Positions 253 to 47,860 of a DNA stretch of 64,000 nt are shown one piece after another (position 1 is the first letter of the stretch; each line of letters opens with the position of its first letter). The translations under genes and the position numbers were made by a program. Under the pieces are notes generated by a model. The model searched no databases, had not been told where the DNA came from, and saw only the letters and a list, made by a program, of their open reading frames with translations. Source of the stretch: Octopus vulgaris (Eukaryota); NCBI GenBank assembly GCA_951406725.2, contig OX597815.1, positions 167,586,001 through 167,650,000 of the forward strand, given 5' to 3'.

Positions 253-454
253 TATAAGGAAAGTTTACGATAAAAACAAAAGACGAAGACAGGTGGAGTA
301 CAAAACAAACAGATGTATTAGTATAACGCTCAGGAATAGAAAAAGTCTTTTACGTTTCGAGCCTACGCTCTTCTACAGAAAGGTACACAGAAAAAAACAA
401 GGAGAGAAAAAATATGTATGTATGTATATATACATGTATGTACACACACACACA

Positions 455-515
<61 letters not shown>

Positions 516-700
516 TTGTAACTACACGCATGCTCTTTGTGGTTTTTTTATTCCACTTTATCGGCTTTTCTGTTTTCCATCCTGTCGAAGAGCTATGCTC
601 GAAACGCCAAAAACTCTCTTTTTACCGAACGTCAAACTAATAAGTTTTATGTGCACGACCTCTTTCTTGGTGTTTATTATTGCTATTTTTAATGTATGTT
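253..700. mobile_element. Two diverged, divergently oriented PLE pseudo-LTR-like repeats flanking a (TA)n tract
   Basis: Each carries a minimal hammerhead-like motif with a GAGC/GCTC stem II (347-382 minus; 582-608 plus). A related tail recurs at ~40060-40110. Confidence 0.55.
347..382 (-). ncRNA. Minimal type-I hammerhead-like motif with A6U core variant
   Basis: Reverse complement reads CUUU-CUGUAGA-A-GAGC-GUAG-GCUC-GAAA-CG-UA-AAAG: stem I CUUU/AAAG, stem II GAGC/GCUC, palindromic stem III ACGU, GUA triplet. Confidence 0.6.

Positions 701-1853: not shown

Positions 1854-1856
<3 letters not shown>
905..1856. mobile_element. PLE remnant: inverted pseudo-LTR pair around the 3' end of a GIY-YIG ORF
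   Basis: ~1050-1226 is an inverted copy of ~1675-1856. Minus ORF 1469-1690 contains PYHKGKEFCQLCNSELFSILF..LVN, matching the C-terminus of the PLE ORF at 38738 (PYTNGSGRCGLCDMERWLI...LN). Bounded by (TA)n on both sides. Confidence 0.7.
1090..1176 (-). ncRNA. Degenerate hammerhead motif in pLTR (second copy 1735-1821, plus strand)
   Basis: UUUCC-CUGGUGA-GAAGA..UCUUC-GAAA-CAUAUG-UU-GGAAG. The other copy has CAGAUGG and GUC; combining the two restores CUGAUGA/GUC. Confidence 0.6.
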
Positions 1857-1903
<47 letters not shown>

Positions 1904-4053
1904 TTTCAACAATTGAGGGTAAAATTAATTAATTATTAATCAATTTCACCAAGTATTCAGTATGTAAAGGGACCATTTAAGGCGAATTCAAAATATTACA
2001 TTTTATAAAGGGCTTAGTAAAATAAATTACTTTGCCACATACTGAACTCATTAGAAATAGCAGCTAAAAAAATTTTTTTAGCCAAATTCTAATACTTAAA
2101 GAAAATTTCTCTCAGATAGTGCTTACTCAAAATAGCCCACGAAGGTATGGGGGTAAAAACATTAAAAAATCACATATGCAAAGGTTATTTGAGAACGTAC
2201 GTTTCTAGATCAGCCAAATACAATTCGACATTTCTTTCGTCAGCCCAAAATTCCTTAATTCGGATTTGTAAACACTGAAAGTAGGAGCATACCCTTTTGG
2301 TGACTTTTCACCTTCGAAGATCCGTTCAGACTACCAGTGCCAACAAATTCAAAATATGCAAGCGAAGAATTTCTGCCCTCCCCTTTCCACCCACGTGGGC
2401 TAAGTTAGCAAACACCATAATTTTATCGGTGAAAACCGAAGGATTAAACAGAGAGAAATGAATTATAATTTCAACAATTGAGGGTAAAATTAATTAATTA
2501 TTAATCAATTTCACCAAGTATTCAGTATGTAAAGGGACCATTTAAGGCGAATTCAAAATATTACATTTTATAAAGGGCTTAGTAAAATAAATTACTTTGC
2601 CACATACTGAACTCATTAGAAATAGCAGCTAAAAAAATTTTTTTAGCCAAATTCTAATACTTAAAGAAAATTTCTCTCAGATAGTGCTTACTCAAAATAG
2701 CCCACGAAGGTATGGGGGTAAAAACATTAAAAAATCACATATGCAAAGGTTATTTGAGAACGTACGTTTCTAGATCAGCCAAATACAATTCGACATTTCT
2801 TTCGTCAGCCCAAAATTCCTTAATTCGGATTTGTAAACACTGAAAGTAGGAGCATACCCTTTTGGTGACTTTTCACCTTCGAAGATCCGTTCAGACTACC
2901 AGTGCCAACAAATTCAAAATATGCAAGCGAAGAATTTCTGCCCTCCCCTTTCCACCCACGTGGGCTAAGTTAGCAAACACCATAATTTTATCGGTGAAAA
3001 CCGAAGGATTAAACAGAGAGAAATGAATTATAATTTCAACAATTGAGGGTAAAATTAATTAATTATTAATCAATTTCACCAAGTATTCAGTATGTAAAGG
3101 GACCATTTAAGGCGAATTCAAAATATTACATTTTATAAAGGGCTTAGTAAAATAAATTACTTTGCCACATACTGAACTCATTAGAAATAGCAGCTAAAAA
3201 AATTTTTTTAGCCAAATTCTAATACTTAAAGAAAATTTCTCTCAGATAGTGCTTACTCAAAATAGCCCACGAAGGTATGGGGGTAAAAACATTAAAAAAT
3301 CACATATGCAAAGGTTATTTGAGAACGTACGTTTCTAGATCAGCCAAATACAATTCGACATTTCTTTCGTCAGCCCAAAATTCCTTAATTCGGATTTGTA
3401 AACACTGAAAGTAGGAGCATACCCTTTTGGTGACTTTTCACCTTCGAAGATCCGTTCAGACTACCAGTGCCAACAAATTCAAAATATGCAAGCGAAGAGT
3501 TTCTGCCCTCCCCTTTCCACCCACGTGGGCTAAGTTAGCAAACACCATAATTTTATCGGTGAAAACCGAAGGATTAAACAGAGAGAAATGAATTATAATT
3601 TCAACAATTGAGGGTAAAATTAATTAATTATTAATCAATTTCACCAAGTATTCAGTATGTAAAGGGACCATTTAAGGCGAATTCAAAATATTACATTTTA
3701 TAAAGGGCTTAGTAAAATAAATTACTTTGCCACATACTGAACTCATTAGAAATAGCAGCTAAAAAAAATTTTTTAGCCAAATTCTAATACTTAAAGAAAA
3801 TTTCTCTCAGATAGTGCTTACTCAAAATAGCCCACGAAGGTATGGGGGTAAAAACATTAAAAAATCACATATGCAAAGGTTATTTGAGAACGTACGTTTC
3901 TAGATCAGCCAAATACAATTCGACATTTCTTTCGTCAGCCCAAAATTCCTTAATTCGGATTTGTAAACACTGAAAGTAGGAGCATACCCTTTTGGTGACT
4001 TTTCACCTTCGAAGATCCGTTCAGACTACCAGTGCCAACAAATTCAAAATATG
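1904..4053 (-). repeat. 565-bp tandem array, ~3.8 near-identical units, one hammerhead per unit
   Basis: TTTCAAC ends at 1910, 2475, 3040 and 3605 (period 565). Only isolated differences seen (e.g. G at 3499; A/T run in unit 4). Starts immediately after (TA)n. Confidence 0.95.
2188..2249 (-). ncRNA. Type-I hammerhead ribozyme motif (further copies 2753-2814, 3318-3379, 3883-3944)
   Basis: UUUGGG-CUGACGA-A-AGA..UCU-A-GAAA-CGUACG-UU-CUCAAA: canonical core, 6-bp stem I, palindromic stem III ACGUACGU, GUU triplet; position 10.1-11.1 is A.A. Confidence 0.8.
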
Positions 4054-4846
4054 TCGAATTGTATTTGGCTGATCTAGAAACGTACGTTCTCAAATAACCT
4101 TTGCATATGTGATTTTTTAATGTTTTTACCCCCATACCTTCGTGGGCTATTTTGAGTAAGCACTATCTGAGAGAAATTTTCTTTAAGTATTAGAATTTGG
4201 CTAAAAAAATTTTTTTAGCTGCTATTTCTAATGAGTTCAGTATGTGGCAAAGTAATTTATTTTACTAAGCCCTTTATAAAATGTAATATTTTGAATTCGC
4301 CTTAAATGGTCCCTTTACATACTGAATACTTGGTGAAATTGATTAATAATTAATTAATTTTACCCTCAATTGTTGAAATTATAATTCATTTCTCTCTGTT
4401 TAATCCTTCGGTTTTCACCGATAAAATTATGGTGTTTGCTAACTTAGCCCACGTGGGTGGAAAGGGGAGGGCAGAAATTCTTCGCTTGCATATTTTGAAT
4501 TTGTTGGCACTGGTAGTCTGAACGGATCTTCGAAGGTGAAAAGTCACCAAAAGGGTATGCTCCTACTTTCAGTGTTTACAAATCCGAATTAAGGAATTTT
4601 GGGCTGACGAAAGAAATGTCGAATTGTATTTGGCTGATCTAGAAACGTACGTTCTCAAATAACCTTTGCATATGTGATTTTTTAATGTTTTTACCCCATA
4701 CCTTCGTGGGCTATTTTGAGTAAGCACTATCTGAGAGAAATTTTCTTTAAGTATTAGAATTTGGCTAAAAAAATTTTTTTAGCTGCTATTTCTAATGAGT
4801 TCAGTATGTGGCAAAGTAATTTATTTTACTAAGCCCTTTATAAAAT
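4051..4846 (+). repeat. Inverted ~1.4 units of the same 565-bp repeat
   Basis: Reverse complement of 3130-3926 apart from a 1-nt indel and a substitution in the A/T run. ATG microhomology at the junction (4051-4053). Ends in (TA)n. Confidence 0.95.
4598..4659 (+). ncRNA. Type-I hammerhead ribozyme motif in the inverted arm
   Basis: TTTGGG CTGACGA ...TCTA GAAA CGTACG TT CTCAAA read directly on the plus strand; predicted cleavage after 4653. Confidence 0.8.
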
Positions 4847-4929
4847 ATATATATATATATATATATATTCGAAACTACGATTTTACGCACAATACCCCAA
4901 CCACGAGGCCACGCACCCTCATATAGACA

Positions 4930-6225
4930 AGGAGAAGTTCAAAATTATCCACATTTTCGACAAAATTTTGTTTGGCATGATTACAGTACCTTCAACGCTT
5001 GTGTGCTAAATAGTGGTACTTTTGTGGTCAACTGACAGGTTTTGATCTCTATAACACCAGTTTTCTTTCTTGTATTACAGAGTTAACATAGCTGCTCCGT
5101 TGGCAGTGTGCATCAAGGAAGCACAAAGAAGACTAATCCGATTTCTCTGGTCTGAAATGTGTGAGGGACTGAAATTCATCGCAGGCTCTCAGCGCCTCAC
5201 AGACACATTTTTCTACCGCGTAGAAATGTGTATGAGTGGATCGAGGAGTTTAAAAAATGGCTGGACAAATGTGAAGCAGGAAGAGGGAGCAAGGTGCTCA
5301 TCAACCGCCACCATTGATGTGAAGATTCAACAAGCTCGAGAGATAATTCTGGCGAACCAGCGAGTGAGTATTGATGAGATGGTATGTTCTCTGCAAATTC
5401 GTCATAGTTCTGCGTATGAAATTGTCCACGACCAGTTTCGCTTTTATAAAGTTTCTGCAGGGTGATTGCCAAGAGAGCTAACCAAAGCACATAAGTGCAA
5501 TCGTGTGGGTATCTATCAACACTTATTTGACCACTACAATGATGAAGGCGCAGGTACCTCAGACAGTTCTCTCTAAGCTACCTTAGAGAGAACTGTCATA
5601 GGAGATGAAATCTGGGTCCATCTCTTTGGACCAGAATCCAAAAGGCAGAGTATAGCATGGAAACATCAAGAAACGTCTGCAAAAAAAAAATATTCAAGAC
5701 GTAAACCTTCTGCAGCAAAAGTCATGCCAAACGTTTTTTTGGGACACAAAAGGGCCTATACTGGAACATTACGTGGAAAAAGGATACTACAGTCATTAGT
5801 GTAGACTACAGTGAAATTTTGGAGAACAAACTGAAACCTGTAATTCTCACCAAACACTGAGGTCTATTATCAAAGTAAGTGTTATTGTCACATGACAACG
5901 CACGCCCACATATGGCTGTCCACACTGTTGAAACCATTGTAAAACTTGGTTTTGATTTGCTGGAAACCCTACATACAGTCTAGATTTTGCTCCTTCTGAC
6001 TATCACCTTTTTAGACCGTTTAAACATCCTTTACGAGGTTGTCAGTTTACTGCAAACCAAGAAGCGCGGGAAGCGGTGCATAAATGGCTGCCGACCAGAT
6101 GTAAGCTTTCTTCTTCGATAGAATAAGTAAGATTGTGGACCATTGCAAGAAGTGCATCGAAAAGCAAGGAAACTATATCTAAAAATTTTGTAAGTGTTCA
6201 ACCGCTGCTTTTGTTTTATTAAATT
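4930..6225 (+). mobile_element. Degenerate mariner (DD34D-type) transposon
   Basis: Broken frames give an HTH region (ORF 5070-5465), LPRELT (WVP-like), GDEIWV, HDNARPH, YSLDFAPSDYHLF and KKCIEKQGNY. Confidence 0.9.
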
Positions 6226-38246: not shown

Positions 38247-38351
<105 letters not shown>

Positions 38352-38737
38352 TGATAAAACGGTAAGATAACAAAAGAAAGAAAGAGACCTCAATATTATG
38401 TAAATAGAGGAAATTTATCTATACAATATGTTACATTACTCGGTAGTCAAGATAAAACTCTGAGTTTCAAATGCCGATGAAATCCACAACACCATCTCTT
38501 CGGTTATATAAAACGTTATATACCGTTAAAATATCTGGTTTACGCCCCTACTCACCCGAGGTAATATAGGTAAATATTTCCTATGATAGATAGACATTTT
38601 CCAGTTAACCATGCTTATAGGAAACTATAGACACAATTTAAAAATTAGTTTTAGTTCAACTACCAATTTTAAAAACATAATCAATCATAACATACAAAAA
38701 ACACAAGAAGAAAACAGCTGTTCATAGGAATAAAGAA

Positions 38738-39175
38738 TTGTGCCCGCTAAATGGAGCTTGCATGTCCAAGACCATCATATATGAAGCTACCGTAAACTCT
38801 ATAACCACTAAAGACACCGTTTCGACGAAGAAATACGTGGGCCTGACAGAGGGTAATTTCAAGGCCAGGTTCAATAACCACACTTTGAGCTTTAGGCACT
38901 GGAACAAAAGAAAAGCGACGCAATTATCCAATCATATTTGGTCTTTAAGAGATAAAGGTGTCGATTATAACATACAATGGAAGATTTTGGCCAGATGTAA
39001 GCCCTATACTAACGGCAGCGGAAGGTGCGGTTTATGCGACATGGAGAGATGGCTTATCTGGAAAAGCAGCTTAGACCCTACCACATGTCTAAATACAAGG
39101 ACAGAGCTTTTCGGATCATGCCCACATGTGACTAAATTTCTGTTACGTTTTTGGTCCCCTAAAGAAAACGGATAG
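38738..39175 (+). pseudogene. PLE GIY-YIG endonuclease domain (open 145-codon fragment, no RT)
   Basis: CPLNGAC..IIYEATV..KYVGLTEGNFKARFNNHTLSF..TQLSNHIWSL..WKIL..CGLC..E..LN.R.E. Confidence 0.88.
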
Positions 39176-39357
39176 AACATGCTTTCTGTGTTATGTCCCA
39201 AGAAGATTTTATATATTTTATATTTTATATATTTTTATATATTTTTATGTATATATATTTTTATGACGAAAAATATATAAGTACGCAGGCAAAGCAGAGT
39301 TATAACAGAGTAATTTCCCTTCATTTTTAACGGTATTTTTTCATAACGTTTTCAAAT

Positions 39358-39410
39358 ATAACCGAAGAGATGGTGTTGTGGATTTCCATATCTGAAACTC
39401 AGAGTTTTAT
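39358..39410 (+). ncRNA. Hammerhead-like motif with U4C core (inverted copy 38452-38507)
   Basis: AUAA-CCGAAGA-GAUG..-GAAA-CUCAGAG-UU-UUAU in both pLTR copies; stem II register is imperfect. Confidence 0.6.
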
Positions 39411-40107
39411 CTTGACTACCGAGTATGTAACATATTGTATAGATATATATATATATATATACATATATATATTTCATACATAACTCTCCCCCTCCTCATA
39501 ACCCCCTCTCCCCCTCCTCACCTATCCTTTCTCCCCCGACCCCTACTTCTACAGTCCTTCATCCTTTCATATATATCCCCTCCTCCCCTTCCTTCTCCCC
39601 ATCCTCTCCTCTTCCCCTTCTCCTCTCTTCTTCCCCTCGCCTTCTCTCCCCTCTTCTCCCCTCCCCTCTTCTCCTCACTATGACTTTACACATCACATCA
39701 CATATGATGTGCCATACTAATACACACACCAACTAATACATACTAATACGTATAATACATACCAGTATACTAATACTTATATATATATATATACTCTCAC
39801 ACACACACACACACACACCTATATATACGTATAATACATACTAATACATACTAATACATACACCAACCCCATACATACGCACGTATCTTACGCACTATAT
39901 ATATATATATATACATATATATATCCAGACCCTCCCACGCACTAGTTCCCTCAACCCTTTTATCAACCCTATTATCTAATATCTTTGACCTCTGGCATTC
40001 TTATAACTGCAAATAAGAATAAAGCTTGTTTTATTTATATTTCCGAGCTTATTAGTTCTTTGTTTTCCACCTGCCTTCGTCTTTTGTTTATTTTCATAAA
40101 GCTTCCG

Positions 40108-46199: not shown

Positions 46200-47860
46200 T
46201 GCGTATTTCACCGAAGATGCAGCTTATCAGTGCCATGCATTCTACTTACACAATATTATTGCTAATCAGCAAAATATTTATAAACTAACTGTATATACTT
46301 TAGACTAGAGATTACGATATCGTTTCGGTGGTGACTCGGGTACGTAGTATTCGTAAGCTGCAAATCTTTTGCCTGCCTCCCTTGTGTTCGCTTCAGGGCG
46401 ATTTTTTTTTTGCATTTCTTAGATCCATTTACATATAGCATGGATTTTTTCATGATTCTTCAATTGATTGTAAGGGGTGTGCAGTTACGTTCCCATCCTA
46501 CAATATTGGCCTATACCGAGACGATGGATTGGGAATAAACTCATGGCGGTGAATATCATACTCTTGATAAAGTTAGGAAAAACTTGCTTATACCTTTAAT
46601 TCACTGGTTTCTCAAAATCAATGTTACTACTAACCTCTCCAAAGTCAATTTCTTCCCTAAACCTAAACTCACGCTCTTATAAACCCTACCATAAACGAGA
46701 AATTCTCATATACACAAACGGTGTATAGAGTGTTTAAAAACATGATAGCTAAGATCAGTGATAGGATATGTAATATAACTCGTCTTGAAAATAAATATTT
46801 CATAAGTCAGCTACTTACTATAAGAGTCCTCTAACAGTGGCTTCAAAAATAGGATATATTACAGCTCTTCAATTACAAATTTTGAAATCTAGAAATAAAC
46901 CTAAAAATAGACATCGGAAAATACTATGTTTCGCCACCCCCTTTCTCTCTAAATATTACAACTAACGTAAACAAAACTTCCTGGCTCTTCTAGATAAGCA
47001 TTTCGCAGTAGGCGATAAATTCAGGAAGATTTTTAATAGACGCTCTTTAAGATATCATATAGCTACTACCCCAATATGCCGAATATCATCACTCATAACC
47101 CACACCAAGAACCCACACCCAGTTGTAACTGTCGAAACCCTGCAGCTTGCCTTCTTCACCAGGTGTGTGTAATAAACTCTGTCGTCTCTGAGACAGAAAT
47201 TACAGCAACACTTCAAGATCACGAAGCTGAAAAGAAAAATTACATCGGTTTATGCGAAAACAATCTTAAAACAGGTTATACAAACCACGAGTCTTCTTTC
47301 CAGGAAATCGATAAAAGTAAAGTCACTAAATTGGTTAGCTACGTATGGTCTTTGAAGATAAACTGCACACCGCATACAATCAAGTGAAGAAGCGTGGGGA
47401 AATCCATGCCAAGTGTAAATGGAGTTATGAAATGTAAATTATGCGTAGATGAAGGAATGCATATTCCTTTTAGATTCAAGAATTCCTTTTAGATCCAAGA
47501 ATGGCGGTGAGCTGGCAGAAACGTTAGCACGCCGGGCGAAATACTTAGCGGTATTTCGTCTGCCGCTGCGTTCTGAGTTCAAATTCCGCCGAGGTCGACT
47601 TTGCCTTACATCCTTTCGGGGTCGATAAATTAAGTACCAGTTACGCACTGGGGTCGATCTAATCGACTTAATCCGTTTGTCAGTCCTTTTTTACCCCCTC
47701 TGTGTGTAGCCCCTTGTGGGCAGTAAAGAAATAAGATCCAAGAATTCCACCACACTACTTAATTCCAGTTCTTTTCGCGAACTGGAGAACACCACCTTCT
47801 CCAGATTGAGCAGTTATCTCACTGAGTTTGGATACCTCTCCGATGAAGTATTCTATAACA
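46200..47860 (+). mobile_element. Degenerate Penelope-like element (RT - CxC linker - GIY-YIG)
   Basis: NIGLYRDDGLGI (46502-46537), LLDKHF..KFRKIFNR, CNCRNPAAC, NYIGLCE..TNHESSF, YVWSLK, CKLC. Interrupted by a SINE. Confidence 0.88.
47503..47733 (+). mobile_element. Young full-length SINE family B with 12-bp TSD
   Basis: AGATCCAAGAAT at 47491-47502 and 47734-47745; inserted within the PLE. Confidence 0.92.

Follow-up and report, generated by a model that had tools for sequence, protein, structure and literature searches.

The array at positions 1904–4846 of the window (the whole 64,000-nt stretch of Octopus vulgaris contig OX597815.1 that was analysed) is, in the account we favour on balance, a single insertion of a protein-free, hammerhead-bearing family with a 565-nt unit, made by the RT-EN protein of a Penelope-like element (PLE), which used a (TA)n target for priming on both its strands and a single, probably circular, RNA as the template. 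That PLE machinery made the insertion is the part of this account that we hold with high confidence. By the sequence-level definition the family, hereafter F1, would be a non-LTR retrozyme and a non-autonomous PLE derivative.

The repeat period of the array is 565 bp, with units starting at 1904, 2469, 3034 and 3599 (the last partial), and the units are 99–100% identical to one another. The layout given in the initial annotation, ca. 3.8 units followed by ca. 1.4 inverted units, head-to-head between (TA)n tracts, is real in the assembly (Table 1), and the hammerhead-sense 3' ends of both arms face outward into (TA)n. Relative to unit 2, two substitutions (3499 A>G and 3768 T>A) are seen, and the final right-arm pass lacks one nucleotide of a C-run. 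The unit is low in GC (34%) and, as annotated, contains no long ORF: stop-to-stop frames reach at most 58 aa within the unit, and frames of 69–70 aa are found only across the inversion or a frameshift. It lacks the RT plus GIY-YIG ORF of an autonomous PLE. The annotated rule of one hammerhead per unit holds for five complete motifs and fails for the first motif of the right arm, which is without CUGACGA.

Table 1. Features of the array and its flanks, in window coordinates. Unit positions (nt) are numbered from the base following the predicted cleavage site (nt 1).
Feature	Position	Strand	Basis
(TA)n target tract, left end	1856..1902		sequence
Left arm, 3.8 units, hammerhead sense; nt 401 round to long end B (nt 290)	1904..4053	-	unit alignment
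Tail, end A (~nt 194) to end B (~nt 290), retained at left outer end only	1904..1999	-	end mapping
Hammerhead motif, type-I; predicted cut 2194/2193	2188..2249	-	alignment, motif
Hammerhead motif, type-I; predicted cut 2759/2758	2753..2814	-	alignment, motif
Hammerhead motif, type-I; predicted cut 3324/3323	3318..3379	-	alignment, motif
Hammerhead motif, type-I; predicted cut 3889/3888	3883..3944	-	alignment, motif
Head-to-head inversion junction, 5' ends of the arms (nt 401, nt 528), 3-nt overlap ATG	4051..4053		alignment
Right arm, 1.4 units; nt 528 round to short end A (nt 194)	4051..4846	+	alignment, end mapping
Hammerhead 3' half only, without CUGACGA, severed by the inversion	4051..4094	+	motif
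Complete type-I hammerhead, extended stem I; predicted cut after 4653	4591..4666	+	covariation, helix probabilities
(TA)n target tract, right end	4845..4868		sequence

A genome search with the unit returned 1562 candidates; 40 of these, on many contigs, were scored, and full-length matches were 93–100% identical. An exact 25-nt cleavage-site pattern matched the genome 281 times, and three further matches were without the upstream U (284 in total). We mapped 89 loci: the window array with 39 others from the unit search, and 49 from the pattern matches, these being the new ones among the first 100 of the listed matches plus two from a further pattern search. Both samples were selected through matches biased towards arms that run across the cleavage site. 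The loci have distinct flanks, as expected of the dispersed, mobile family that a non-LTR retrozyme forms. The unit is thus dispersed, young, free of ORFs and equipped with a type-I hammerhead, a retrozyme in kind, much as had been proposed. The units are nearly identical and inverted repeats are hard to assemble, which would fit an assembly artefact or an ordinary satellite, but the same architecture recurs at 88 other loci, each with its own haplotype and junctions, and we give such an origin practically no weight.

At least four sister families of ORF-less units, ca. 545–600 nt long, were found. F2 (ca. 545 nt) is 82% like F1, with copies 99–100% identical and arrays of about six units; F3 (602 nt) is ca. 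70% alike in the aligned 3' part; F4 has a 558-nt period, and F5 is ca. 600 nt long (examples of F2–F5: L101:1234-1763, L067:4810-5541, L263, L315). A tail motif common to the families has 2305 exact genome matches, part of which were inspected. One F5 insertion is present, with identical flanks, at L278, L279, L283 and L284 (G000:C1, ca. 21.1–22.3 Mb), a segmental duplication; its central junction is a near-perfect palindrome, the length of which differs between copies.

The hammerhead elements described in the annotation, a CUGACGA/GAAA core, a UUUGGG/CUCAAA stem I and a GUU site, are all present. In the plus-strand motif they run in the order UUUGGG (4598–4603), CUGACGA (4604–4610), GAAA (4642–4645), ACGUACGU, GUU (4651–4653) and CUCAAA (4654–4659). 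Stem I pairs 4598–4603 with 4654–4659 and is extended by pairing of 4591–4594 with 4663–4666; the CUGANGA, GAAA and NUH core and helices I–III of a type-I hammerhead are all there. Helix III is short, 2–3 bp in a monomer and 8 bp (-9.8 kcal/mol) in a dimer. The stem III palindrome, GUAC in F1–F3 and GCGC in F5, fits the dimer model in the available text of Cervera and de la Peña 2014 (PMC4209133). In the whole-unit fold, helix probabilities of stems I and II are mostly 0.86–0.98. Among 16 variants from F1–F3, the core letters are constant except N7 and N17, and 91% of cells pair, versus 30–45% with the partners slid. The F1 pair 506/10 is G-C 38 times, A-U 35 times, G·U seven times and never A·C. 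Both sides were changed in 8 of 17 pairs among the 16 related F1–F3 sequences, which is not above a shuffle control (298 of 500 shuffles), and folding energy alone was no better than that of shuffles (z -0.36). Core and helices are kept across families only ca. 70–82% alike. Judged at the sequence level, the motif is a conserved hammerhead structure, with compensatory changes in support of the fold.

Family-specific departures from the canonical motif were also observed. F1 has GUU (U17) and A·A at positions 10.1/11.1, and F2 has GUU and U·U; both depart from the usual G10.1-C11.1. F3 and F5 are canonical, with GUC and G10.1-C11.1. The Rfam Hammerhead_1 search that the annotation had suggested as a check found no match in the F1 motif, either at the gathering score or at E values up to 10, and F3 scored 22–24 bits against RF00163, where the cut-off is 34. 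Matches to Rfam miRNA and snoRNA models were far below gathering scores and, in one scan, fell mostly on microsatellites. From its sequence, the self-cleavage activity of the F1 hammerhead may be low. In the available text of Li et al. (bioRxiv 10.64898/2026.07.22.740005), in vitro cleavage is reported for one of nine Xenopus retrozyme dimers.

The evidence for PLE machinery comes from the insertion ends. The 3' ends of arms fall at two fixed sites, A (ca. nt 187–204) and B (ca. nt 290–295), ca. 95 nt apart. Two arms were present at 59 of the 89 loci, and one end A was combined with one end B at 25 of 28 and 28 of 31 such loci in the two samples (53 of 59); of the rest, two were BB, none was AA, and four had another end. 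Under independent 50/50 choice, 53 A+B combinations out of 55 have P = 4e-14. The same combination was seen at all scorable sister loci (F2, 10/10; F3, 3/3; F5, 6/6). Among the first 40 loci, (TA)n adjoins 64 of 66 A or B ends; such a tract would mask any target-site duplication. Two fixed 3' ends with a one-sided tail, an inverted 5'-truncated copy, and an AT-rich or (TA)n target, the marks of PLE insertion, are therefore combined in this family. The annotation was right that the outer ends of the array lie at different phases of the unit; these phases are the two fixed end sites of the family, one per arm, rather than arbitrary permutation points, and the permuted ends that it expected genome-wide were not found at the mapped loci. 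According to the available text of Frangieh et al. 2024 (PMC11167929) on the Poseidon PLE, the two strands of the target are both cut and extended by the PLE protein, and RT starts internally at two positions, one on each side of the tail; A and B are therefore most simply read as two RT start sites.

The tail carries a 15-bp hairpin (1918–1950) with pair probabilities of 0.97–1.0 (0.56 for the innermost pair), and the hairpin is kept in the sister families. A closing stem that would hold A and B together appeared in folds of the isolated tail, was absent from the alignment fold, and had a probability below 0.2 in the whole-unit ensemble; it is not supported. RT stalling inside the tail was looked for, and no 47-nt bin was enriched. 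The 5' stops of arms are spread round the unit at ca. 1 per 600 nt, in samples that favour long arms, and do not pile up at one transcription start.

The two arms of an insertion were very likely copied from one template. Differing columns amount to 56 of 7791 (0.72%) between opposite arms and 0.65% between tandem passes, as compared to 2.64% between loci. Comparison of the passes of each locus at 57 diagnostic columns gave 1929 concordant and 14 discordant cases, with 641 discordant ones expected under random drawing; L220, which is probably a two-template event, contributes four of the 14. A common haplotype would also result if one arm were copied from the other by fold-back or self-priming, the model for Adineta PLEs proposed in the available text of Arkhipova et al. 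2013 (PMC3846280), and in 37 of 53 arm pairs the arms are indeed nested, as this route requires. The remaining 16 pairs are not nested, the arms of L191 and L257 having no shared sequence at all, and there neither arm can have been copied from the other. Moreover, the longer arm is A at 25 loci and B at 28, and at most junctions the arms overlap or are separated by no more than 6 nt, as expected of end-joining, in place of long palindromes. We consider fold-back an improbable source of the inverted arm; the non-nested pairs argue against self-priming, as described in that paper, as the sole route.

Whether the common template was a circle or an uncleaved multimer is a separate question. Insertions cross the cleavage site seamlessly: 281 exact matches keep the upstream U and three do not. 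Arms almost never stop at this site, and a linear monomer is therefore not the usual template. Stops there comprise two clear cases (L037/L192 and L191) and a degenerate one (L190) among 284 (0.36 expected, P ~0.05), not a pile-up, and are at most a weak hint that some templates were cleaved linear RNAs. Seamless crossing fits equally well with two-site PLE priming on an uncleaved read-through multimer transcribed from a tandem locus, the hammerhead being weak or vestigial and no circle being formed, and the GUU and A·A departures of F1 agree with such a hammerhead. Read-through, however, requires for each long array a longer parent of the same haplotype, and among the ten longest arrays all 45 pairs differ at one or more sites fixed in all passes, and 15 variants private to a locus are carried by all of its passes, against four that are partly shared; this favours rolling on a circle. 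The argument is indirect, since parent arrays may be absent from the assembly. Pass-specific variants do not recur between loci, as they would if patterns were inherited from multimeric parents, and both the conservation of core and helices across the sister families and the lack of 5' stops at one transcription start also speak against a multimer. We regard the multimer as the less likely template, and lean towards a circular one. None of the 24 listed runs is recorded as RNA; contigs from 4 of them, the RNA nature of which was guessed, cover the unit (three runs) or part of it (the fourth). Joints from 4653 to 4089 were seen in two of these runs, but tandem DNA yields the identical joint, which counts neither for nor against a circle. 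Rolling on a circle has been proposed for retrozymes (available text of PMC7229834), while for an Anolis PLE in vitro, unprocessed RNA was used and hammerhead cleavage was not needed for insertion (available text of PMC11167929).

A search for the partner enzyme revealed two young autonomous PLE families in the genome. The first is Hydra-type: a GIY-YIG remnant at 38533–39172 of the window belongs to a family with 21,880 genome candidates and a 717-aa frame carrying the RWK, DKT, CxCx5C, CxxC and CxH motifs that the available text of PMC8557442 gives for the Hydra clade. One short and one long end were found in all of 20 hand-picked two-armed insertions of this autonomous family. Its copy in the window is a truncated two-armed insertion at 38346–39470 (family examples L100–L119), and its 3' end has a hammerhead-like CCGAAGA in place of CUGANGA and a tail of ca. 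68 nt that follows the one-end-each rule. The second family is Neptune-like, with many intact 781-aa frames (L353–L362, e.g., G000:C16:20835000-20841000). Upstream lies a long N/T/H-rich open frame, some copies have an extra end of ca. 35 nt, and the 3' UTR of ca. 1 kb has tandem repeats in which GATTGG and TGACGT occur. A (TA)n end is common to both families, and either could therefore act in trans on the unit. Neither shares DNA with the unit, and the tail of the unit was found neither in these families nor in sampled old GIY-YIG remnants. A profile search of 323 sequences found no tail directly behind a PLE ORF; two matches lay ca. 770–810 nt downstream of one, beyond the PLE's own end. F5 was considered as an autonomous partner and rejected as another ORF-less unit.

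GIY-YIG PLEs, annotated as abundant in the window, are not: tblastn gave two remnants with the Hydra-type query and none with the Neptune-like one. An old GIY-YIG PLE remnant at 46978–47444 is 33% identical to the Hydra-type protein, and 56826–57022 matches the Neptune-like 3' end at 74%. The array has a (TA)n tract in common with its immediate left neighbour, an inverted-arm element (1036–1227 and 1676–1875) with a degenerate, palindromic hammerhead-like motif (GAAACAUAUGUC), which is probably a different PLE derivative. At 335–395 (minus strand) and 574–625 (plus strand) lie two short, divergent hammerhead-like motifs; their cores read CUGUAGA or CUGUCGA, and their stem II is GAGC/GCUC. To the right of the array, broken reading frames at 5055–6200 resemble a mariner-type transposase; the one frame run against Pfam gave no match.

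A single locus, or constant attachment to a PLE ORF, had been named in the annotation as an outcome that would speak against it. Apart from being dispersed, the F1 element was joined to a PLE ORF at none of the 89 loci, and PLE remnants lay at least 280 nt outside the elements. This bears on a further possibility, that an unsampled autonomous PLE is the source of the units, as truncated pLTR fragments expanded locally by unequal crossover. An origin of retrozymes from pLTRs followed by local amplification is proposed in the available text of Li et al. (bioRxiv 10.64898/2026.07.22.740005), and the uninspected part of the 2305 tail-motif matches leaves room for such a source. Yet wherever an arm runs beyond end B, the same unit continues, and junctions are locus-specific. 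In addition, locus-private variants are found in a single pass (100) or in every pass (15), while the partly shared ones expected of local expansion are rare (4). We consider this origin, too, to be improbable.

The favoured pathway, insertion of a probably circular RNA by PLE machinery, would proceed as follows. The hammerhead would cut tandem transcripts, probably as a dimer formed through the palindromic stem III, and ligation of the products would give a circle of 565 nt. The tail would be bound by a PLE protein, probably dimeric, that nicks the target on both strands; on the same RNA, site A would serve as the start for one cDNA and site B for the other. Each cDNA would then roll round the RNA until drop-off (about one stop per 600 nt), with head-to-head end-joining of the two cDNAs as the last step. 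A wider reading, which we put forward tentatively and hold to be somewhat short of even, is that a long-lived clade of 545–600-nt circular ribozyme RNAs parasitises PLE enzymes via the conserved tail hairpin and is not the current pLTR of any partner. Its insertions would then record the general mechanism of EN+ PLEs: a single protein dimer and a single circular RNA, with rolling synthesis from two start sites, obligatorily different, each serving one target strand. If true, this reading would give pLTRs, inverted copies and the one-sided tail a common explanation.

The mapped ends provide insertion-level evidence that retrozymes use PLE machinery, which bears on how animal retrozymes integrate. 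They also bear on the tandem, inverted and tailed insertions of PLEs themselves, and speak against fold-back as the sole origin of inverted arms. The families offer a short substrate and young near-identical copies, and the genome that holds them also has two intact ORFs as candidate helpers. Both canonical and non-canonical hammerheads are supplied by the sister families, F3 and F5 being the better first substrates for cleavage. The alternatives of a circle and an uncleaved multimer, and the rule of one start site per strand, become directly testable.

Twin priming of LINE-1 also produces a head-to-head inversion with RNA-sense 3' ends outward and a micro-overlap junction, as in F1; the second LINE-1 priming site is variable and internal, while both F1 sites are fixed and either arm may exceed one unit. 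The class of retrozymes and the unit size are already known. Neither the F1 family, nor a counted one-end-each rule, nor a counted rule of different start sites on one template was found in the literature searched, whose scope lay outside Repbase, most subscription journals and supplements (which may hold family lists). Published retrozymes measure 51–972 bp in the available text of Li et al. (bioRxiv 10.64898/2026.07.22.740005), who argue that they are non-autonomous PLE derivatives. The annotated "comparatively large" unit does exceed the RNAs of 170–400 nt that have been tested, but at 565 nt it is inside the published range.

As far as the available texts of Cervera and de la Peña 2020 (PMC7229834) and bioRxiv 10.64898/2026.07.22.740005 go, F1 resembles animal non-LTR retrozymes in being an ORF-less, low-GC tandem, with one type-I hammerhead per unit, dimers to multimers, and co-occurring PLEs. 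It differs from them in its size relative to the tested 170–400-nt RNAs, in that its putative circular RNA is deduced from insertions, and in being found mostly as dispersed insertions, short and head-to-head, that lie in (TA)n and have two fixed ends of PLE type. In those papers, the case for PLE mobilisation is built on co-occurrence and on homology to pLTRs rather than on insertion ends. Non-autonomous Chlamys PLEs such as MRC1 (available text of Craig et al. 2021, PMC8557442) likewise form multicopy head-to-tail insertions; unlike F1, they generally resemble an autonomous partner at the 3' end, and most are without hammerheads. The likeness to EN+ PLEs, above all to those of the Hydra clade (Craig et al. 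2021, PMC8557442) and to Poseidon of Anolis (PMC11167929), extends, in the available texts, to partial tandems, an inverted 5'-truncated copy, a tail at one end, (TA)n targeting and a hammerhead upstream of both end sites. F1 stands apart from these elements in having no RT-EN ORF and in its tail of ca. 95 nt, as compared to their 30–40 bp.
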